Positions 8,145 through 60,268 of a stretch of DNA of 64,000 bases are shown here, piece by piece. The notes beneath the pieces were generated by a model. The model was not told the DNA's origin, did no database searches, and was given only the letters and a program-made list of their open reading frames with translations. The translations under genes and the position numbers were made by a program. This DNA is from an uncultured Chloroflexia bacterium (lineage in GTDB: Bacteria > Chloroflexota > Anaerolineae > JAAYZQ01): the NCBI GenBank assembly GCA_963700285.1, contig CAVOXA010000010.1, positions 1,888,001-1,952,000 on the forward strand, read 5' to 3'. Within the stretch, counting starts at the first letter, position 1; every line of letters begins with the position of its first letter.

Positions 8145-9916
8145 GTATCATCTCAATAACTGGGGGTAAGTTAGGCAGCGCGACCATGAAGCACTGAGCC
8201 TCAGCTCACTGGCACGTGCTTCGATCAGGCTCGCCAACGATGGAATCTGGTTCGACTTGGAAATCCGATCGTGAATGTACTGGTAGAAGCTAATGCCCAG
8301 TTTCCTGGTCGTGGCGACCAGGCTCATAAAGGTGTCCCACGCTCTGACACCATCTTGCGTGCGCGGGCCGAAGCTGACGTCGCGCTTCCGCACCCGTTGA
8401 CGCGCTTCCAGCTCGACCGGATTGTTATGCAACGGGATCTCCGGGTATTTGAGCACCATCAGCAAAGACGCTTTCTTTGCCCGCGTCTTGGCAATCCGGG
8501 CATCCAGGGCATCATAGCCGGTGCAGGTCGAAAACAGCCGGTCAAACTCCGTTTCCAACCGGGCACTTTCTTCTGGGGTTGGGTGCTGTTGGTAGGCCAA
8601 CAACTCGTCGTAGAACTCCCAGAACTGCTTTCGAAAATCGCTCAGCAGTTCCAGATGGTGGACGAAAACCGGCATCAGCTTCTTGTAGTGTCGCCCCTCA
8701 TGCACCCAGCACAGGGCCAACTCTTCCGCGAGCCAGTTGAACTGCGGCGCATCGTCGCAGACCAGCAAGCGCACAATGGGGCATGCCCTCTTCGGCGTGA
8801 TAGGCCGCCACGGCTGCCGCACTCAGAATCGCCTGCCGCTGTTGCGCGTTCAGCTTCGGCCATCTGCTGTCCAGCCGCTCCACAAAGGTCTGCTCGTCCC
8901 AGTCCTGGTCACTGCACTCGGCCGACAACCAGGTGCGCGTGGCTTTCGACAATGGAACAGACTCCAGATAGCCCAGCGCCTCCTCGTTCAACCGAAAGCG
9001 ACGCGCTCGACCGTTGCGCAGCACGTCCAGCACGCTCAAACGATCCTTGCTCGGCGTGGTCGTGTAGACGGTGTACAGCGGGTTGCAGACAATGTTGCAG
9101 TGCTGGTTCTGTCCGTCTACCCGCGTGCTGGTTTGATCGATATGTTGAAAGGGGCTGCTCCCCAATCCCGCTTCGCAGACCTCTGCCTTCTCGGCGTGAA
9201 ACACCTCTTGTCCTTTGATCAACAGATTGGACAGTTGGCCCGTCGAGATCTGGACGCCCATGTTCTCGTACAACTCCAGGATCTTGGGCTCGCTCATCCC
9301 GCCGCCAAAGTACAGGGTCACGGTCAGGGCTTTGAGCCCCGGCCCAAACTGCCCCTCGTACCCGAGTGGCAGCGGGGCCAGAAAGGTTTGGCCCGTCGAC
9401 GGCGCCCAATACTTCTCCTTGTGGAAGCATACGTTGTCGGCGCGAAAGATGAGATCCTGCACCACAACGTCTTCGTAGCCCTTGAACTCGGCATCCGGCG
9501 GCAAGCTGGCTTTGTCCACTTCCAGCGTCTGTTCGCGATGAATCTCGAGGTTTGCTTTCTTGGCTCGCTTCTGACGGGGCTTGGGTTTGCGCCGCTCTTG
9601 CTCCGACGAGTAATCAACCCGAGGCGGCTTGGGCGTGTTGGCCTTGATCTTGGGCTTTCCTTGCTCGCCTTTCAACCGATTGTTCTCGTCCCGCAAACGC
9701 TGAATCTCGGCCTGTGCATCCCGCAAGTCGGCTGGTCACGGCTTCGATCAGGTTCATCAACCGGACAATCAGTTGCCGGGCATTCTCGTCTTGGATGTTG
9801 CTCAGGTCAATGTCTTCCAACATAATGGCGCTATTCTATTCACTTTTGCTCAAAACGGCAAGTTTGCTCCTGCGTCTGTCCTTCGGGGGCTTTCCCCCGG
9901 TTTATTGAGATGATAC
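8145..9916 (-). mobile_element. IS66-family insertion sequence, single-ORF type, 1772 bp
   Basis: Terminal inverted repeats GTATCATCTCAATAA(CTGGGGGTAAG) and (CTTTCCCCCGGT)TTATTGAGATGATAC. No target-site duplication seen. Confidence 0.85.
8148..9823 (-). CDS. IS66-family transposase (two frameshifts)
   Basis: Pieces 9614-9823, 8698-9726 and 8148-8822. Motifs HIDQT, LVCDDAPQF, LCWVHEGRH, PLHNNPVELEAR. Confidence 0.85.
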
Positions 9917-9932: not shown

Positions 9933-9961
9933 TTGACCGAAAGATGGAAATATGATATAAT
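9933..9961 (+). promoter_or_regulatory. sigma70-like promoter of the STAND NTPase pair
   Basis: TTGACC-17-TATAAT with extended TG, 16 bp beyond the IS end. Confidence 0.65.
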
Positions 9962-10002: not shown

Positions 10003-11160
10003 ATGAAGCTTGGAAGTGAATTTGTGGGCGTCCGCTACACAAACGAGAGAGCGCTGCTCCCTGCCCGTGGCACCATGGCGCACAGGCAACCCCGGGGCGC
10101 GGAGCAAAGCATTTCCGCTGGCTATGACCGGGGGCTATTTGTGATTCCGGGGGACATCTACCAACGCGTGCTTGCCAAGCTGCGGGGGTGGAAAGGATCT
10201 GAGCGGGATGGGTCCAACAAATCCGGGGACAGGGCCGTAGAGAATCTCGGCCCGCGGCTGTCGCCGGTGGACCAGGTCCTGCGCCTGGTGGGTGAGCGCG
10301 GGGTGGGCAAGACCTGGTTGCTGCGACACTTGGCGGAGGACGACGAGCAGGTGGTGCCAGCCGCAGTATACGTTGACCTGCTTGAGCGATGTGACTTTGG
10401 GACACCGGAGGACTTTTGCGACGCGGTCCAGCGACAGATAGGGCTTCGGTGTGGGTCGAAGAGCGCCATCTTGCTACTCGATACCGTTCCCTTGCATCTG
10501 GATGATCACCTTAGAGCACTGGAGAACAAGGTTCTCCGTCCGCATCTGTCTCAAAGGGGGTCGATGGTGATCATGGCCCTGAGCCATCCCTCGCGCGATG
10601 GCTGGCGCGCGCCCATTCTCAGGGGAGGCGAGAGCCTCTGGCTGCACTCCTTTGTACAGCCGCAGACCCTTAGCCAGTTACAGCGTCTAGAGAAGGCCGG
10701 TCAGGTCAAGGTCCGCTTGAACGCGGCCGCTGTTCAAGATCGTGGCGGGGGACTGCCACTTCTCAACTATCTTTTCACCCAATACGAACAGGATGTGGCC
10801 TTCGAGTTCCTTCTAGAGTACGTTTTTCGGCAGATTCCAGCCCAAGAGCGGGCCGCGGTACGGAGCTATCTGGACGCAGTCTGTGTCCTGGAGTCTCTGG
10901 AGCGTACATCCATTGAAGGCGCGCTTCGGGTATACCATCGCGGGCAGCCCCAGGCTGGGCCATACCACCCTCATGCCAGACGAGCCCACAATACTCTCCG
11001 CGAATATGGGCTGGCCCGATCATCTCCCGATCTGCCTGGCAGAATCGTACTGGTTGAAAGCGTTCGACGTGCTGCCAGGGAGGTCCTGCAAGTACGTGCG
11101 CCCAGTTTGTACGCGGCGATGAATGAAGCTGCCCACGGTGCAAGGAGAGGAAAGCCGTGA
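10003..11160 (+). CDS. Short STAND-like P-loop NTPase (start uncertain)
   Basis: Walker A GERGVGKT, Walker B-like ILLLDTV, GxP motif GGGLPLL, helical C-terminus, no repeat region. Confidence 0.7.
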   Translation: MKLGSEFVGVRYTNERALLPARGTMAHRQPRGAEQSISAGYDRGLFVIPGDIYQRVLAKLRGWKGSERDGSNKSGDRAVENLGPRLSPVDQVLRLVGERGVGKTWLLRHLAEDDEQVVPAAVYVDLLERCDFGTPEDFCDAVQRQIGLRCGSKSAILLLDTVPLHLDDHLRALENKVLRPHLSQRGSMVIMALSHPSRDGWRAPILRGGESLWLHSFVQPQTLSQLQRLEKAGQVKVRLNAAAVQDRGGGLPLLNYLFTQYEQDVAFEFLLEYVFRQIPAQERAAVRSYLDAVCVLESLERTSIEGALRVYHRGQPQAGPYHPHARRAHNTLREYGLARSSPDLPGRIVLVESVRRAAREVLQVRAPSLYAAMNEAAHGARRGKP

Positions 11161-14100
11161 ACCCATCGGATTTCACCGGTGCCCGACGTATCCCTTTGGT
11201 TGGGCGCCATAGTTTCCTGGAAGATGCCCGGCAGCACCTCAGGCAGGGAGGGGCTTACCTCCTCTATTTTGAGGGGGATGGCGGCATTGGAAAAACGGCT
11301 CTCCTCGAGACCATCATGGAGCGCAGCCGGCGCGAAGGTGAGGAGCGCGTCCGTTACTCTGGCCGCGTCGCCGACGAGATCATTGATCTGTACCACATTG
11401 ACGTCCACACGCCAGAGGGCCTCATTCGCAGGATCGTTCAGGTGCTGGATGCTACCTCCTTCAGAAGGACCCAGAATCTACTGAATACCCTCGATTGGGC
11501 CCGCAGCATTGGCGATGTAGATGTGGCCAGCGAGGAATCGCGCGCCCTCCATGCAGCATTCCTGGAGGAGTTCGGGTTTCTGGCAAAGGATGGGGTTGTA
11601 CTGGCATTTGACACTATGGAGGTGCTCGAGTACGAGCGCGATGCCTTCCAGGAAGAACTGGGTACAGAGGTCCCCATCCTCAGTGCGGGGCAGTGGTTGT
11701 TCGAATCCTTCTTTCCAGCAGTTCAAGGCAATGTTTTGCTCCTCCTCGCCGGGAGACCAGACAGTCTGAGGCAGAGACTCCAGACGCTTCGTGAGCGCCG
11801 GCCCCATGTCCGGGTACGTTATGCCAGGGTGGATGCGCTTCAAGAAAATGAGGTCATCCAATATCTACAAACAGTCGCCCAAGCCGAGGGCGAGCAGGGT
11901 GATTTTGATGCCGCTGCACGGCTGTGGGATTTTGCTGACGAACGCGGTGACGTTGTGCACCGTTTGACCGGGGGCAGGCCCATCCTCCTGGCCTTGGTAG
12001 CTGACTTGGTGGCCCATGGCTGGGCGCTGCCTACCTCGTTTGGACGCACACTGGAAGATCTGAGCGAACAGAGCCCACAAGTATGGTCGCGGGAGATCGA
12101 GTCGGCGCTGGTTGTACGCATCCAGGAAAGCCCCTCACCCATTGGAGAAGCCATCCACGCCCTGGCCTGGCTCCGCAAAGGGGCCACGCCCGCTCTCCTG
12201 GCCCGCGTGATGGCTCTGAACACAGCCGATGGTAGCTGGGATTTGGGAACGGCCCAGGAGTACCTGGAGGAGGTGGCGCGTCTGACCCTGGTCAAGGTCC
12301 GCTCCGGCGACGGCCGAGTCTTTCTCCATGACGAGCTTTATGCGCTCATGGGCAATCATATCTTGCAGGAATGCAGCCAGGCGGAGCGAGATCGAGTCTA
12401 CCAGGCAGTGTTGGATTACTATGACGATCTCGTCGCCGACCTTGGGCGGCGCGTGGACCGGTCTTCAGTTATCCTGCCCCTCATACACGCCCGCCTTCGC
12501 CAGGCCTACGTCGAACAGATGCATTACAGACTCTGTCATCGCCCTGCCCTGGGCTTTGCCATGTATTTCTGGCTAGCGGAGGAAGCCTTGGGCGGTCGCG
12601 ACGCTGAGATGGATATGCTGCTGCACACGGAACTCTTGCGCACGGTCCGTCTGCTCGACCAGTCTGGCTCTCTTGACGGGCTGGATCCCAAAGAGCTGCA
12701 GTTGGATGCGGCTGTGCGCTGGGGGATGCGAGCGCTATTTCTTGGTAACGATCCAGATGGAGCGCTCGAAATCTTTGACAAGCTGTACCAGGATAGAAGA
12801 GGGGATGCAGAGGATCCGAGTCCGGCGTGGACCCACATGCGTCTCTATCAGGCCGCGGCGAGAATAGAGCGAGCGGGAGAAGGAGACTGGCAGAAAGCCA
12901 GACAACTACTCTGTGGCGTAGTGCAAGAGATGGACGAGATACCCGCTGGCCTTGCAGCACCATCGCCTATGAAGGGAGTATTCTGGTGGGCTCAAGCCAA
13001 TGCAGTTCCTGCAGGGGCGTCGGTGGCAGAAGGCAGGTATTGGCTATCCCGAACACTGGGAGCGCTGGCCCTCAACTACGAGGGGTATCTGGACCAGCAG
13101 CAGGGACGGTATACGGAGGCCATGGCTCACTATCAGGCATCTGCCATGCTCCAACGGCGCCTGGCTATGGCCGGATTGGCTCCCACGCTGACCAATCTTT
13201 CCCATACCATGGCGCTGATAGGCCAGTTTCAGAATGCTCGCCTTCTGGCTCAGGAGGCTGAACGGTGGGCAAGGCACAGCGGCAAAGAGTACGTGCTGGC
13301 CCAGGCCCTGAATGCCCGGGCCCTGGTAGAAATCTACGACAACCACCACAGGGATGCGCTGCGCTACACCGATCAGGCGCTCAAAATCGCTGAGGGGCTG
13401 CGCGCTCCCCGCGTGCGGGGGATGCTTTTCCTCACCAGGGCCAGAGCCCAACGCTATTTGCTGCTTGGGGAGGAGACCAAGATCCCCGAGCCCCAGGTCC
13501 TGGACGAAGCTCTGAAGGAAGCCAATCAGGCCGTGAATCTTCTGAAGAGCAGTCCACCAGACAGAGTGCTGGCCCTTGTCGAGCGAGGATGCCTGCTTCG
13601 GGAGGTAGCCCGTGGCTACTATTTGCAGCAGCGCTACGAACAGGCGGACAGAGCGGCACACAACAGCCAGCGAGATCTGGAACGAGCGGCGGCGCTGGCA
13701 GAAGCCTTGGGCCTTCCCGACCAGCAAGCTCTGGCCTTGATCGGTCTGGCTTGGCTGTGGTATCAGACTGGCCAGATAGATCAAGTGGATGAGGCTCTGC
13801 GCCAGGTGTACCCGGTTGTCCCATCAGGGTACAGATTCCCCCGGGAGGGGGAGCTTCCGCCCATGGCCTGGGCTGACCGCAAGTCGCAAGCTTGCCTGCC
13901 TTTCTGGAGCGTCCTGGGCAAAGCGGAAATGCTCAATGCCTTTGTCGCCCTCGATCAGGCCCAATCCGCCTCGCGCCATATAGAGCAAGTGGGGAGGCTT
14001 CACCAGGCCGTGAGGACCATAACCCTGTCCTTGGCCTACGAAGAGCAGATTGCCGACGCTCACTTTGATATGACCCGCGCGGAAGCCAGCCTGCACCGGC

Positions 14101-14240
14101 GCATCCTTCATGACAGGCTTAGTATCGCTGGCCTGCACCAACATGCCCAGCAAGTCGCTGAAGAACTGAACCTGTCCCGCCCCACCCGTTTTCAAAGGTT
14201 TTTGGATCGGCTGTTTGGGCCGGCTGACTTGTGGGTATAG
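11157..14240 (+). CDS. STAND NTPase with C-terminal TPR array
   Basis: PLVGR, Walker A GDGGIGKT, Walker B VLAFDTME, LAGR, TGGRPILLAL, LHDEL, then TPR-like helices (ALALNYEGY...GRYTEAMAHYQAS). GTGA overlap with the upstream gene. Confidence 0.8.
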   Translation: MNPSDFTGARRIPLVGRHSFLEDARQHLRQGGAYLLYFEGDGGIGKTALLETIMERSRREGEERVRYSGRVADEIIDLYHIDVHTPEGLIRRIVQVLDATSFRRTQNLLNTLDWARSIGDVDVASEESRALHAAFLEEFGFLAKDGVVLAFDTMEVLEYERDAFQEELGTEVPILSAGQWLFESFFPAVQGNVLLLLAGRPDSLRQRLQTLRERRPHVRVRYARVDALQENEVIQYLQTVAQAEGEQGDFDAAARLWDFADERGDVVHRLTGGRPILLALVADLVAHGWALPTSFGRTLEDLSEQSPQVWSREIESALVVRIQESPSPIGEAIHALAWLRKGATPALLARVMALNTADGSWDLGTAQEYLEEVARLTLVKVRSGDGRVFLHDELYALMGNHILQECSQAERDRVYQAVLDYYDDLVADLGRRVDRSSVILPLIHARLRQAYVEQMHYRLCHRPALGFAMYFWLAEEALGGRDAEMDMLLHTELLRTVRLLDQSGSLDGLDPKELQLDAAVRWGMRALFLGNDPDGALEIFDKLYQDRRGDAEDPSPAWTHMRLYQAAARIERAGEGDWQKARQLLCGVVQEMDEIPAGLAAPSPMKGVFWWAQANAVPAGASVAEGRYWLSRTLGALALNYEGYLDQQQGRYTEAMAHYQASAMLQRRLAMAGLAPTLTNLSHTMALIGQFQNARLLAQEAERWARHSGKEYVLAQALNARALVEIYDNHHRDALRYTDQALKIAEGLRAPRVRGMLFLTRARAQRYLLLGEETKIPEPQVLDEALKEANQAVNLLKSSPPDRVLALVERGCLLREVARGYYLQQRYEQADRAAHNSQRDLERAAALAEALGLPDQQALALIGLAWLWYQTGQIDQVDEALRQVYPVVPSGYRFPREGELPPMAWADRKSQACLPFWSVLGKAEMLNAFVALDQAQSASRHIEQVGRLHQAVRTITLSLAYEEQIADAHFDMTRAEASLHRRILHDRLSIAGLHQHAQQVAEELNLSRPTRFQRFLDRLFGPADLWV

Positions 14241-14247
14241 TCGTTGC

Positions 14248-17028
14248 TCAGCCCTGCTTGTTCTGAACGTCCAAGATCACGCCGTCGGGCGCGCGCATGT
14301 ACAACGTGGGAATGACCCAATCTACAAACCTGTTCCACTCAGCATCGAGTACGGTCATGATACCGCGCCGCCCCTCTTGCACGGCGGCATCGACAGGCCA
14401 GCCGCTGGCCAGTGCGCCATAGAACTCGCGACTGAAAGCACCCGCAGTTTGGTCGGCGATGGGCTGCTGCATGGCCACAACTGCAGGGATCCCGCCCTTG
14501 ACCAGTTGTTGCGCCGCGCCACCCAAGGTGATCTCGGAACCGTTGGACGAAGTCTCACAGGCGTTCAGTACAACCAGTCGCAGCTCACTATCAGCAACCA
14601 TCTGGCCCAGCAGCAAAGCTGAAACCGGATCAGCCCGTCCCTCCGAGTCCTCTAGCATCAAGTAGCCATCCTCGCCCTCAAAGGTGCCGTGACCAATATA
14701 GTGCAGTACGTGATAGCCGCCGCGCAACCTGCTCAGCAACTGCTCACGGCGGGTACCCTGCATTACGTCCACTTCTATCCTATTGGGTAGCCGGGCCAGT
14801 GCCGTCTGAATATGACCAAGCTCATCCTCCACATCAAAGGGCCTCAGGTCCTGGGGTTGCGATACCGCTATGAGTACGCGTAGGGGTGGGCGGACGGCCA
14901 GCGGCTTTGGAGGATGGGGTAGATCAAGATAGCGCACAAGGGGAAAACGTACGCGCAATGCCAGGTATTCTTCCTCAAAGATCAACTCCCAGGGCAGACT
15001 CATCAATTCCAGCGGCCCCACGTGCAGCCTGATACGGAGGCCCATCCCCTCTTCCAGACTGCCCACGGTCCGCAGCCAGAGCTTCAGGACGCGTGTCGGA
15101 AAGAGGGCATCAAACAGGGTCACCCCAACCGCCTGCATGTCCTCTGCCGTCGTGTTCTGGCGCTGGATACCTTGCAGGCGCCGCTGGAGCGCGCGGTCGG
15201 GCGGAAAAACGAGTGGCTGCGGAGACACACTGCCAGCCCCCAAAGTATCAGCCTCAACCGTATAGCCCGTGGCGATATCGCCGCGGACACGCAGGTCAAA
15301 GTTCCTGTAGACCTTGAGCCCAGTCTCATTCTGCGCGCCAGGTGCTCCCTGCTCGTCAGCAGGCATCTGGGCATCGTAGGCCGGCTCAGCGCCGCTGACA
15401 AACTGGTCACCGCGACCGGCATGGACCTGTCCGCTCACCGGCTCCCAAAAGTTGTTGATGTAAGTCTGGACAACAGAGGGCAACGGCGCTCTGTATACGC
15501 GATTTCTGCGCAGTCGATACAGCGTGCTTCCTTCAATGTAAAAGTAGTCGTCCTTCTCGCTCCAAGGCCGGCCGACCTCAGCAAAGATGCTTGCCATCCG
15601 TTTCTGGAACCAATGATTGGGCGCTATGCTCCAGACCTCTTCCCTGGGTACCGTCGTGACATGGCCATTGAGACAACGAAGCACGACAGACTCCCCATCA
15701 GATATGGACGCCCTACACTCCTTGCATCTGAGCTGTGGTCCATTGAGATCAAGCTTCTCGCTTTCGCACTTGGGACAAAGGTCTGCTGTCTCCTCGCACT
15801 GACCACATTGCACGCGGAGATATGGGCTAAAGTACTTGCCTGCCAGTGCCTCATAGATGGCCAGCGCGGACTGGGGCACTGTCACACTGGTCAATTCCTC
15901 CCGCTCCGTCTGGAGCAGCGCCTCGACGATGCCCATGATGGCTCCCTTGCCCGCTGAGCGCATCCGCATGCGCTGGATCGCGTCAATGGAGCGATAGAAA
16001 GAGCCCGGCTGGCTGGCCCTCAATTCCTTCACATCGCGTACCAGGTCGGGCAGTCGCTGTATCCCCCAGGCCCGTACCACTGAGGTTGGCAGCTTCTTTG
16101 TAAAATAGATCTTGCCCTTGTTCGAGGTCACACCCAGCCCGCTGGTCATGCCGTTGCCGAATTCCTCCTCGTAGAGGGAACTGGGCCGGGCGTAGATTTG
16201 CTCGCGGTTCAATAATTCTTGCTCGTGAGACTGCCACAAGCTTCGTCCAGAGATGGACTGTCGCACCCCGCTGCCGGGGTCATAGTGAGATACCCTTTTG
16301 ACCTTCTCGATGGAAAAGTGCTTGTCAACAAGCTCCTTCGGGAAACTGACCCGCAGGGGAAAAGCCCTCAGACAGGTGCCCAAGGCTTGTGTCAGCAAGT
16401 CATTGACCCGTTCGTCGCGGGAGAGAATGACGAGATAGCCCAGGTCCAGATCGAGCCATAGGAAGCCGTAGCGGCTCTGAAGAACCTGGTCGGACTCCTC
16501 GTCGGCATTGAGGAAACGATGGGCGACATAGTAGCGGAAGCGGACTTCGCGGATGCCATCGAATCTCTCCTCGTCGAGCAGTACGATCTGACCTGGTGCT
16601 GTCTCGGCCTCATAGTCTTCGCCCGCCACAGACAGCTCAGCCAGCTCAAGGTGATTTGAAGTGCCTAGCCCATCCAGAGCGTCCTGGACAGGTTCCATCG
16701 CCGGTGAGGTCAAGCCATCCGGGAGCAAGTAGAGGTAGAAAGAAAACTGCCGTCCATAGCGATAGTTCTCGTACAGGGTTTCGACGTCAGCAACCGAAAT
16801 GGCTGGCAGCCTATCAGCTTCGGCCACCAGGTCAGCCTGGCTCACGTGACCCAAAGTTGGTTCTGACTGGCGGCTCTCCAGCAACTCACGGAGGGCAAAG
16901 ATGGGTATGTGGTAGAGTTTTTGGAGGTTTGGGAGGCGAGGTCTTTCCGCGAGCCTTTCAGTCTCAACATCGGCAGGCGTGCCTGCTCCCCTGTCTTCTT
17001 CTATCTTTGGCAGGGGCTGATCAAGCAT
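14248..17028 (-). CDS. CHAT (caspase-like) domain protein with unknown N-terminal domain and Cys-rich Zn ribbon
   Basis: C-terminal LPWELI, HYIGHG (His), LVVLNAC (Cys), AVVAMQ, FYGAL. Central CGQC..CPKC..CKEC..CLNGH. Confidence 0.85.
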   Translation of the reverse strand: MLDQPLPKIEEDRGAGTPADVETERLAERPRLPNLQKLYHIPIFALRELLESRQSEPTLGHVSQADLVAEADRLPAISVADVETLYENYRYGRQFSFYLYLLPDGLTSPAMEPVQDALDGLGTSNHLELAELSVAGEDYEAETAPGQIVLLDEERFDGIREVRFRYYVAHRFLNADEESDQVLQSRYGFLWLDLDLGYLVILSRDERVNDLLTQALGTCLRAFPLRVSFPKELVDKHFSIEKVKRVSHYDPGSGVRQSISGRSLWQSHEQELLNREQIYARPSSLYEEEFGNGMTSGLGVTSNKGKIYFTKKLPTSVVRAWGIQRLPDLVRDVKELRASQPGSFYRSIDAIQRMRMRSAGKGAIMGIVEALLQTEREELTSVTVPQSALAIYEALAGKYFSPYLRVQCGQCEETADLCPKCESEKLDLNGPQLRCKECRASISDGESVVLRCLNGHVTTVPREEVWSIAPNHWFQKRMASIFAEVGRPWSEKDDYFYIEGSTLYRLRRNRVYRAPLPSVVQTYINNFWEPVSGQVHAGRGDQFVSGAEPAYDAQMPADEQGAPGAQNETGLKVYRNFDLRVRGDIATGYTVEADTLGAGSVSPQPLVFPPDRALQRRLQGIQRQNTTAEDMQAVGVTLFDALFPTRVLKLWLRTVGSLEEGMGLRIRLHVGPLELMSLPWELIFEEEYLALRVRFPLVRYLDLPHPPKPLAVRPPLRVLIAVSQPQDLRPFDVEDELGHIQTALARLPNRIEVDVMQGTRREQLLSRLRGGYHVLHYIGHGTFEGEDGYLMLEDSEGRADPVSALLLGQMVADSELRLVVLNACETSSNGSEITLGGAAQQLVKGGIPAVVAMQQPIADQTAGAFSREFYGALASGWPVDAAVQEGRRGIMTVLDAEWNRFVDWVIPTLYMRAPDGVILDVQNKQG

Positions 17029-17262: not shown

Positions 17263-17291
17263 ATTATACCACGTTTCTATCTTTTTGACAA
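17263..17291 (-). promoter_or_regulatory. sigma70-like promoter of the CHAT gene
   Basis: Minus strand TTGTCA-17-TATAAT with extended TG, about 235 nt upstream of the start. Confidence 0.6.
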
Positions 17292-28332: not shown

Positions 28333-29421
28333 CTAGACTGCGGCCCAAGTGAGAGCATTCTCAGGCGTCATGTCGCTGAAGAACGCTTCCACAGTCTCGA
28401 GCAATACCTTCATCGAGCCGTATAGCCGATTGGCGGCAACGTGGTTCTTGAGGCGCAGCCAGATGTCTTCAACGGGGTTCAGGTGGGAGCAATACTTGGG
28501 CAGATAGTACAGCTGGAGCTGTGGGTGAATCTCCAACCAATCACGGACGAGGTGGGCAGTGTGGCTGCTGTAGTTGTCCACAATCAAGATAATGGGCTGA
28601 TGGGAATAGACAATCAACAGATGTTCCAGGAAAGCGAGAAGTCCTCTTTGCGTACCCGCTCGCGGACGAGGTAGGTCCATTGTCCCGTGCGGATGTTCAA
28701 TGCACCGAACAAGGCACGGGTCGTGTTCGAGCCTGGCGTCGGAACGCGAACCTGTTGACTGGCCCAGTGCCACATGGCGCGGATCAGTGGCAAGAGCTGG
28801 ATCCGCGATTCGTCCGCATACAAGATGGCTGTTTCCGGTGGTGCTTCCACTGCTGCCTTGACGATTGTCCACTGTTTCTGCGCTTTCTCAGGATCGACCT
28901 TGGCTGGCATTGCCAGTCGAGGACGACCCCAGCGCAATCCCATCTGATGCAGTGTTCTACGCAAAGCGCTCAGGCTGAGGGTTACTTTCAGCTCATGGGT
29001 CAGAGCCAGGGCCAGCGTGGCGACTGTCCAAAAGGTTGCCAGATAGCCTTCCTGCTGTGGATCCTCTTGCATCAGTTGAACCACTATACCTTGCACCTCA
29101 TCGGTGATCTTTTGCGGTCGACCGCTGCGCGGTTGATCATACAAACCGCTCGGACCGTGTTTGTTGAAGCGGTGGATCCAGAAACGGACGGTAGCACGAC
29201 AAACGCCAAAGATGTCAGCGAGCTCGGGTACCTTCTTTCGCCGAGTGGACAACAGAATCATCTGCGCTCGCTGGCTGACTCGTCCGACCTCTTGGCGAAC
29301 CATGCGCTCGAGTTCTCTTTGTTCTTCATCTGTCGGTTCTCGGGCATAAAGCATTTTGCACCTCCGCTATCATTGTACCACCATTGCGGAAAAGTGCAAT
29401 AGACTTTCTGCTACCTACTTA
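28333..29421 (-). mobile_element. IS630-family element (frameshifted transposase, one end apparently missing)
   Basis: HTH N-terminus (29354 start), YADES, IVDNYSSH, HLNPVED. Upstream end TAAGTAGGTAGCAGAAAG; no matching IR after the stop. Confidence 0.85.
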
Positions 29422-58609: not shown

Positions 58610-59046
58610 GTCCTGGCTTCTCTGCCTTGTGGATCGTTTTCGGCGAGAACCATCTGTCGTGTGCGCAGGCTGGAACGCACGTCTTTCTGACTGATTCGAG
58701 TGGGAACACCTTGGTCCGCGTGATAGCCCTGGGCGATGGCGATTTCAGACCAGGAACAGCAAGGCCCCCTCATGGACCCCGGAGGTTTTCTGCAACCTCC
58801 GAGGTCTGAGTAAGATGGTCGCCGGGCTCGGGATCGGGTAGAGGCTCGTCGACGTCGGGGTCGATGCGGACGGTTCTGGTGAACAGACGCGCGGGGATGG
58901 CGATGGTGGGGTGGGTTGGGATGTCTGAGACTCGGATTAGTTGCATGGTTGCTGGTTTCGTGTTCCTAGTTTCTAGACCCTTAGGGTCCAAGGCAGACCC
59001 TAAGGGTCAAGATGAGATCCTTCACTCCGTTCAGGATAGCCTTCGG

Positions 59047-60268
59047 CTATTCCTCTCCTGCCGCGTAGGTGAAGCTGAGGCCGGTCAGGCGGACGTCGGC
59101 GGTGGCGCTGGTGTCGGATAGCTCGATCTTGAGCTTGAGGCGGTAGAAGCTGACGGATAGGTCGGAGGCGGTGACGCGGGAATCGGCGCCGGTGTTGGTG
59201 GCGGCCTGGGTGTAGGCGCCGCTGTCGTCGGCCTGGTACTTGATGGTGACGGTGGTGTTGGCCGGTGGCGTTCTTGACGGTGGCGGTGATGTTGAGCAGG
59301 CGCTTCTCGACGCCGGGGCGGTCGCCGTCGTGCCAGGAGGTCTCGAGAGCGCCGTCCTGCAGGGCGGAGCCGCCGTCCTGCAGGGCGGAGCCGCCGTCCT
59401 GCAGGGCGGAGCCGCCGGCGTGGCAGATGCCCTCGTCGCTGCCGGACTTGCCGGTAAGGATGATCTCACCGCCGCAGCTGGCGGCAATAGGCGTCATGCC
59501 GCTGGCGCCGAAGGTGGGAGTGAGGAAGTCGGTGAAGTGGTTGCCGACCAGGAGCTTGAAAGCGGCGGAGCTGGTGGTCAGCTCGTAGTAGAGCAGCTCG
59601 CCGCGCCAGGTCAGGAGGCCGATGCTGGAGGGGCTGGCGGCGGAGTCGGGGATGCGGGCGACGCGCTCGACACGGTAGCCGGTGTAGGCCAGGAGGTCGC
59701 GGGTGACGGTGCCGTCGGGGTTGGGGTGGGCGCCGGAGAGGAGCCAGAGGTCGTTGTCGTGGACGCAGAAGGGGCAGCCAGCGGAGGGATAGGCGCCGGT
59801 GTCGGCGGGCAGGACGGCCATGTCCTCGAGCTTGCGGACGGAGGTCTTGGCGTAGGCAACGGTGCGCATGACGCGGAGCTCGCCGTTGAGAATCGAGCAG
59901 ACGATGAGCAGGTCGTCCTTGAGGCCGGTGGCGAAGATGGGGACCAGGTCGTCGGCGGGGTTGTAGTGGCCCTCGAGGAGCGAGCCGTCGGTCATCATGC
60001 GGTAGATGCGGCAGTCGGGCTGGACGAGATAGACCCGGCCGCCGACGTAGGAGCGGGCGTTGGGGGCGTCATAGAAGATGCCCTCGACGGCGGTCAGGCC
60101 GGAATGGGTCAGGTGGGATGAGAGGGCCGGGGCGCGGCGCAGCTCCTGGCGGTCGAGGGTGGGCAGGAGGCCGGTCAGGGTGTATAAGTCGCCGGGCTTG
60201 CGGTGGATGTGCTGGCCGGCATTGGTCCAGAGGTTCTGGTGGATGCGGTGGAGGCGGATCTTGGGCAT
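59047..60268 (-). CDS. Putative phage tail nozzle/tubular-B-like protein (frameshift at ~59260)
   Basis: Beta-rich N-terminal part, then LETSWHDGDRPGVEKRLLNI...YRLKLKIEL...LTGLSFTY C-terminal sandwich. Assignment is by resemblance only. Confidence 0.5.
59351..59413. repeat. Perfect 21-bp x3 in-frame tandem repeat
   Basis: GCCGTCCTGCAGGGCGGAGCC three times, encoding GGSALQD repeats. Confidence 0.95.

Follow-up and report, generated by a model that had tools for sequence, protein, structure and literature searches.

Three adjacent genes, here called A, B, and C, lie in a 64,000-nucleotide stretch of DNA from an uncultured Chloroflexia bacterium (contig CAVOXA010000010.1, positions 1,888,001 to 1,952,000; hereafter the window). 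The original prediction joined them in a split, inflammasome-like unit in which two STAND NTPases (A and B) oligomerise and activate a CHAT protease (C) in trans. Comparison across related genomes points to a different arrangement: as framed, the locus is mostly a juxtaposition, and it contains what is apparently an undescribed family of sensor-proteases. A and B are best explained as the leftover core of a multi-STAND operon, a module separate from C; C is probably a self-contained immune sensor-protease, in which an RdgC-fold dimer clamps DNA and switches on the CHAT domain of the same chain.

An RdgC-like region fused to a caspase-like protease

The domain order of C (Table 1) is observed, and the two parts of the protein that had been recognized at the outset hold up: the CHAT domain (91 bits, against a Pfam cut-off of 24) has an intact dyad, and the Zn ribbons keep invariant cysteines (C408-C452) together with H456. 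What had been overlooked is a large folded domain of ~370 residues ahead of the Zn ribbons. The predicted model of residues 1-543 has a predicted local distance difference test (pLDDT) score of 84, and the ~500-residue N-terminal region is predicted to adopt an RdgC/CENP-N fold. Residues 92-338 match RdgC in Foldseek (E 1e-4) and in VIA (Z 11.0; root-mean-square deviation, rmsd, 4.3; 214 aligned residues), followed in VIA by Iml3 (Z 10.5), CENP-L (9.7), and CENP-N (8.6). The top seven VIA rows are all RdgC, Iml3, or CENP-L/N, and the first unrelated row has Z 6.1; RexA, at 5.1, falls below the bar of ~8. Other searches add little: residues 1-630 have no Pfam match at E 0.01, and so no RdgC profile hit; a feature search of the N-terminal region gives only scores of 0.82-0.83, below the reliable range, and the hint of GAPS4b_N in it (15% of one cluster) was set aside; and PADLOC finds no meaningful match in 27 homologues of the N-terminal domain (N-domain).

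The likeness of C to RdgC, RexA, Iml3, Chl4, and CENP-L/N thus lies in the predicted fold of residues 92-338 and in a predicted two-site homodimer. C differs from these proteins in sequence (~9% identity, without a Pfam RdgC match) and adds to them a fused protease and, ahead of it, a helical cap, Zn ribbons, and a linker motif; in contrast to RexAB, no RexB-like membrane gene lies beside C in the window. The cap reaches VIA Z 5.0-5.6 with the SAP regions of FAN1 and PIAS1, below the same bar, and is a lead only. In some CENP-L and CENP-N alignments the match covers the helical cap as well as the RdgC-like lobes (7pkn_L 34-335, Z 9.7; 7xhn_N 32-329, rmsd 9.1); residues 32-335 of C may parallel these kinetochore proteins in domain order.

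If C is folded like RdgC, does it also pair like RdgC? According to the available text of one study, the dimers of RdgC are rings that encircle DNA, and the anti-phage protein RexA of lambda shares the RdgC fold and also binds DNA (PMC11077077). The homodimer prediction for residues 31-508 of C scores 0.63, versus 0.00 for the best of three controls, a value that may reflect likeness to the solved RdgC; the runs have at least 64% of contacts in common, at pLDDT of at least 76. The mark used was reached by 20 of 30 solved homodimers and by 1 of 23 single chains, a calibration that is roughly valid here, with its own alignment supplied. Confident contacts include two symmetric sites, near C165-186 and C253-268; two such sites would suit a ring, and C may well bind DNA.

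In the proposed mechanism, the RdgC-fold dimer would clamp foreign or damaged DNA; clustering of C would bring CHAT domains together for proximity-driven activation, possibly helped by self-assembly of the motif at residues 521-541; and the protease would then cleave its substrate, leading to cell death or dormancy. The trigger could also be a protein or a stalled protein-DNA complex instead of DNA on its own, a proposal made for Rex-type exclusion: the RdgC-like region has an acidic first half (K+R 11, D+E 24) and a basic second half (19 and 13), and RexA mutants uncouple DNA binding from exclusion (PMC11077077, available text). However, the closest folds, those of RdgC, Iml3, and CENP-L/N, contact DNA, and nuclease-fused versions of C, described below, imply a nucleic-acid target; a protein trigger is highly improbable.

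With Craspase TPR-CHAT and SAVED-CHAT, C shares a CHAT His/Cys dyad fused to a regulatory N-terminal module. It differs from them in its sensor fold, in having neither a TPR nor a SAVED domain, and in its surroundings, with no Cas family among the 25 open reading frames (ORFs) scanned in the window (1-30 kb); the PADLOC SAVED_CHAT match (E 6e-12) falls on the CHAT part only. No system is matched by A, B, or C in PADLOC, as had been anticipated, or in NCBIfam. In the open-access literature, no report was found in which a caspase-like protease or an amyloid-type adaptor is under the control of an RdgC-fold domain, and searches for RdgC with caspase, anti-phage, KwaB, or CENP-N returned only RexA as relevant (subscription papers lie largely outside this search). 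Sensor-effector logic is already known; an RdgC-fold sensor with a caspase-like protease is apparently undescribed.

Table 1. Genes, domains of C, and flanking elements (window positions; residue numbers refer to C)
Feature	Position	Strand	Description
Gene A	10003-11160	+	385 aa; small STAND-type NTPase
Gene B	11157-14240	+	1027 aa; STAND NTPase, winged helix, and TPR-like solenoid; no effector domain
Gene C	14248-17028	-	926 aa; predicted sensor-protease: helical cap, RdgC-like fold, Zn ribbons, linker motif, CHAT
C residues 33-89	16762-16932	-	Small helical domain, weakly SAP-like
C residues 92-338	16015-16755	-	RdgC/Iml3/CENP-L/N fold (predicted); predicted homodimer
C residues 408-456	15661-15807	-	Zn-ribbon region; invariant Cys/His columns in 52- and 27-row alignments
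C residues 521-541	15406-15468	-	Conserved Gly/Val/Thr-rich linker motif; candidate amyloid-type adaptor
C residues 634-892	14353-15129	-	CHAT caspase-like protease domain; dyad H780/C824; Pfam E 9e-26
IS66-family transposase remnant	8148-9726	-	Two overlapping frames; Pfam DDE_Tnp_IS66 E 1e-5, 3e-4
Sigma70-like promoter site for A-B	9933-9961	+	TTGACC-17-TATAAT; 11/12; extended -10 TG
Sigma70-like promoter site for C	17263-17291	-	TTGTCA-17-TATAAT; 11/12; TG

Swapped outputs and candidate amyloid-type motifs among homologues of C

Across its relatives, the N-terminal region of C is the constant part and the output varies. Scoring of the top 7,988 candidates gave 84 homologues of 509-1621 amino acids (aa): the dyad is intact in 46 and degenerate in 14, and the other 24 lack CHAT, although some of these last could be cut by contig ends. 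The profile used to search the representative library retained CHAT columns and was swamped by CHAT proteins; it gave only some of the distant N-domain homologues. In four distant proteins and at two loci (667-700 aa), the chain ends in a different domain. The C-terminal domain of one of the homologues (P0228) is Mrr-like by its features (0.92) and by structure (template modelling score, TM, about 0.6, from a model with pLDDT 0.56); at L050 the N-domain gene closes a DUF499/DUF3780/DUF1156/PLD-helicase operon, and at L100 it follows a mad8/DndH-like gene. In one family, f23, a separate CHAT gene stands directly upstream of a 25-31% identical N-domain gene in 5/5 genomes; this is the same CHAT/N-domain pairing, split and in reverse order, and no A or B match is present at these loci.

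These swaps bear on a quite different view of C, as a regulator of housekeeping or development, in which an RdgC-like protein that binds the nucleoid, equipped with a HetF-like protease, would serve DNA repair, division, or filament differentiation, not defence. Measured against metagenome locus L059, the ratio of nonsynonymous to synonymous substitutions (dN/dS) is 0.24-0.32 for A, 0.12 for B, 0.10-0.12 for C, and 0.08 for polA, so that A, B, and C are all under purifying selection, and a single-copy gene whose ratio is as close to that of polA as that of C would suit a housekeeping role. So would its distribution, concentrated in a single family (9 of the 15 genomes of that family in the class sample described below, that of the window among them), its lack of matches in phage records (plasmids gave one weak, partial match), the resemblance of its CHAT part to HetF, which lies far below the cut-off, and the modulation of RecA by RdgC (PMC11077077, available text). 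But the protease is degenerate or absent in 38 of the 84 homologues; it is swapped for an Mrr-like nuclease beside restriction-type operons and for motif-linked membrane and DUF4062 partners; and no C gene turned up in 12 of the 23 genomes of the family. A role in housekeeping or development seems rather unlikely.

The membrane and DUF4062 partners come into view through the linker motif. In C itself, residues 521-541 have a conservation of 0.76, versus 0.23 in the next block (55 full-length rows), and long forms of C repeat the motif before a C-terminal helical domain. At six loci where the N-domain ends at the motif, the adjacent gene carries a matching one: each of eight comparisons gave 0/500 shuffles, for loci that were hand-picked after the motif had been seen and with shuffles that control low complexity incompletely. 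One locus, L049, may be a broken gene. The type of motif changes by locus (GPVTGPVHTGSGD in L060 and L064, GD-I-IG-GKNI in L074 and L076, ISGG-QGAVG in L073), and the partners include helical proteins as well as a two-helix CyanoTRADDas membrane protein and a DUF4062 protein; DUF4062 is described, in the available part of the source, as a TIR-like NADase defence family (10.64898/2026.05.01.722283).

To judge from their sequences, the tail-motif loci are candidate relatives of bacterial amyloid signalling pairs. In the accessible portions of two studies, matching motifs in adjacent genes define the BASS amyloid pairs, which include CHAT and TIR partners (10.1101/2020.01.06.895854), and Bab/Agp amyloid pairs act in phage defence (10.1101/2024.11.07.622273). 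Like BASS1-10 with NLRs and like Bab/Agp, BASS11, the loci described here have a 20-25-residue, G/V/I/T/N-rich motif in adjacent gene products, which is locus-specific and tied to CHAT, TIR-like, membrane, and helical effectors. In BASS, an NLR or TGP protein acts as receptor and has its motif N-terminally; here the receptor would be an RdgC-fold protein whose motif is C-terminal; the helical partner domain comes after the motif instead of before it; and the main motif has a conserved Pro, which BASS motifs tend to lack, as far as the available text goes. The window differs further in having no second protein with the motif: a scan of 42,614 ORFs of the genome shows it in C alone, and neither A nor B matches (482 and 321 of 500 shuffles score as high), so in this genome the motif could act only between C molecules.

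The same genome holds a second CHAT gene (G000:C1:403977-410913) in which the protease is followed by a Gly/Ile-rich stretch and a helical tail. A similar motif, GD-V-IGKNI, opens the next gene, so that the two may be a pair of the second motif type, and the genes upstream also look like conflict genes.

It is a tentative but real possibility that C represents a new class of immune receptor, in which an RdgC/CENP-N-fold ring clamp on invader DNA has as its output a fused protease or nuclease, or an amyloid-type tail; as part of the same joint reading, such a tail would recruit separately encoded membrane, NADase, or helical effectors, and amyloid and caspase signalling would both issue from a DNA clamp instead of an NLR.

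The A-B pair and its parent operon

B is a STAND NTPase by its invariant residues and its fold match, and A by its conserved motifs. In A, the Walker A motif (G97-T104) is intact, with an AAA_22 match at E 8e-9; Walker A and a GxP motif (G250-x-P252) are conserved in an 11-row alignment, and there are no repeats. The Walker B motif reads LLLDxV (x = T, A, H, N, S, or G) in 10/11 aligned homologues, and the second acidic residue that would follow it is missing from these 10/11. B has a Walker A motif at G40-T47 and sub-threshold matches to AAA_16 and TPR_12, and G45-K46-T47, D152, P275, and H391 are invariant across 41 rows. Its AlphaFold model (pLDDT 87.6) comprises an NTPase, which begins at about residue 14, and helical repeats; no N-terminal effector domain is seen in the model, and the initial description of B as an effector-less STAND-TPR protein stands. 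The best Foldseek match is the archaeal STAND-TPR protein 6mfv (E 5e-11), then Avs3 (E 2e-7, TM 0.16), and Apaf-1 is matched as well. B is thus built like Avs and other bacterial NLR-like STAND-TPR proteins and like 6mfv, with a STAND module, a winged helix, and TPRs. It differs from Avs in having no N-terminal effector and no Avs model match at E 0.1 (PADLOC), in being paired with a second, small STAND protein in a multi-STAND/GNAT/radical SAM operon, and in its repeat region, which is not diversifying (dN/dS 0.12 in the NTPase and in the repeats alike).

The pairing of A and B, proposed along with their GTGA overlap in the window, is borne out across the class. In a sample of 401 genomes, the A profile matched 35 and the B profile 81; in all but one of the 35 A-positive genomes (34; the exception is G129), B starts 9-883 bp downstream of A and on its strand, and at L089:6737-11251 the two are fused in a single 1504-aa ORF. 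For context, 35 A-B or B loci (26 chosen from the class matches and 9 from the window's family; ≤20 kb each, several cut by contig ends) were examined. The recurring order is a variable first gene, a STAND-wHTH gene (22/35 loci), a Sll1717/DS-41-like ATPase gene (20/35; the DS-41 label is below cut-off), A, B, a GNAT gene (15/35), and a radical SAM/SPASM gene (downstream in 29/35, one of them weak; three of the six misses are at a contig end). The first gene encodes membrane segments or a TIR domain (L098), with a weak STAND-like region common to the variants; a weak EAD7 match is also found among the first genes of relatives. A-B is the middle of a conserved multi-STAND operon that ends in GNAT and radical SAM genes. 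No gene with CHAT or with the N-terminal region of C (C-N) occurs in any of the 35 loci.

Several of these loci (L091:4797-17162, L084, L090, L092, and others) have six- to seven-gene operons with up to five STAND-type NTPase genes; L084 and L090 have two copies of A. The radical SAM/SPASM enzyme has a Cys-rich (DCAC) N-terminal stretch. In a close relative (L001:6857-8001), A has two frameshifts, for which assembly error is likely because polA is also split there. B orthologues in L043, L057, and L003 have no A or radical SAM neighbours, and there are many B homologues of ~1010 aa, so B also persists alone.

In the genome of the window, tblastn finds no orthologue of the operon partners, only generic radical SAM and wHTH matches. 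A and B may act as a paired nucleoside triphosphate switch, with the repeats of B as the sensor and A as the partner with a weak Walker B motif; the usual output of such a switch would be the GNAT and radical SAM genes, the very genes not found here. The locus and its relatives resemble the conflict systems of Kaur et al. 2020/2021 in having a constant core with variable effectors, STANDs, caspases, and peptide-modifying accessories, a logic set out for multicellular bacteria in PMC7159879 and PMC8195603. In contrast to those systems (MoxR-vWA ternary, EADs, two-STAND with GT4/HEPN effectors), no MoxR-vWA couple is seen here, and the available portions of the two papers describe neither the multi-STAND/radical SAM operon nor an RdgC-fold sensor. 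The open-access literature gave nothing relevant on nSTAND5/6 or on the pairing of Sll1717 with STAND, and PADLOC returned only generic TPR, mad8, and viperin-like radical SAM matches for the operon, and no system. The multi-STAND/radical SAM operon is a second, separate lead.

Neighbours by descent or partners in signalling

Why, then, do A and B lie beside C? In the trans-activation model, A and B would oligomerise on a phage protein and activate the CHAT domain of C, which would have replaced the GNAT and radical SAM output in a family-specific unit. C-N matched 16 of the 401 class genomes, and the A-B pair is also present in only two of these, G000 (the source of the window) and G263, which belong to one genus; C-N thus occurs in 2/34 A-B genomes. 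A phylum-wide sample gave C-N matches in 2/401 genomes. In a 23-genome sample of the family, A was found in 7, B in 11, and C-N in 11, and only G000 and G263 combine close orthologues of the three genes; G048 is without A and carries B and C on separate contigs, and G401 has A-B and, on another contig, a 24% C-N homologue. Together with the 0/35 count above, these numbers speak against the three-gene signalling unit of the original prediction: the CHAT gene and the NTPase pair occur largely independently, yet A and/or B do adjoin C in one family.

It is this family that gives trans-activation its appeal: A and/or B are linked with C in several branches and in two orientations, A-B are kept under selection without their usual partners, and B offers repeats without an effector where C offers CHAT without a TPR domain. 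Beyond the sparse co-occurrence, however, the linker motif of C is unmatched in A or B, and C has its own promoter-like site and a sensor-like domain. In addition, fabF/plsX, pentapeptide, and TM0106-like nuclease genes recur around C in the same patchy way, as inherited gene order predicts; the patchy linkage of A and B with C fits inherited gene order at a conflict-gene spot. Activation of C by A and B is distinctly unlikely.

The preferred reading, of a leftover A-B core beside a self-contained, DNA-clamping sensor-protease, has evidence weighing against it too. Besides the limits attached above to the dimer score and to the motif pairs, the first half of the RdgC-like region is acidic, DNA binding by RexA is reportedly not strictly needed for exclusion (PMC11077077, available text), and C evolves almost as slowly as polA and sits in recurring chromosomal neighbourhoods, unlike mobile defence genes. 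Within the family of the window, A and/or B are beside C more often than by chance. Five of 19 metagenome loci, many of the remaining 14 being short, show A and/or B close to C: L059 has both, L061 and L063 have A immediately upstream of C, L065 has it three genes upstream, and in L077 B and C converge. Among the genomes, B is convergent with C in G286 (where B is cut by the contig end), and A is directly upstream of C in G129. Three further pairs of B and C homologues, whose longest contigs are equal in size (17,656, 15,353, and 20,810), are indirect cases. A/B-linked copies of C are spread over at least four distinct branches of a quick C tree, so that the linkage looks old; with long outgroup branches, open forks, and 1/49 rows dropped, the tree shows only that the linked copies are not one tight branch. 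With no operon partners found here, A and B remain under purifying selection, and so still have some function. Finally, the source genome is 89% complete.

Some neighbours of C are of interest in their own right. A TM0106/RecB-like nuclease with an RNase H domain follows B or A in L077:1453-3219 and L065:3261-5003; the window genome has a TM0106-like orthologue elsewhere (G000:C22:89266-90984), beside another ATPase-like gene. The ~580-aa genes of L065 and L077 were considered as radical SAM enzymes and rejected, the L077 protein being TM0106-like. In L065, an Mrr-nuclease-NB-ARC-TPR gene (L065:5071-7875) lies directly upstream of C and overlaps its start region.

In the window, the three ORFs are where they were first placed, each single-copy in the 7.05-Mb genome, with the stops of the convergent B and C 7 bp apart. 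At this junction (14240-14248) no terminator-like site was found, so the B and C transcripts may overlap as antisense RNA. The promoter sites in Table 1 are consensus matches only, 6 sites being found versus 2.9 +/- 2.0 in shuffles. The IS66 remnant directly upstream of A is flank, outside both modules, and the same-genus locus L058 has other genes at its site; polA lies beyond C. Mobile elements are frequent in the window, with an IS630-like transposase (HTH + DDE_3) at 28614-29354 and a further possible transposase ORF at 59000-60268.

If the preferred reading of C is true, a DNA-clamp receptor would be added to bacterial cell-death immunity, in the form of a single-chain, DNA-triggered protease that could be tested in vitro. 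Amyloid signalling would extend past NLR and TGP receptors. The trigger of RexA has long been in question, and its fold would be tied to a measurable protease output.

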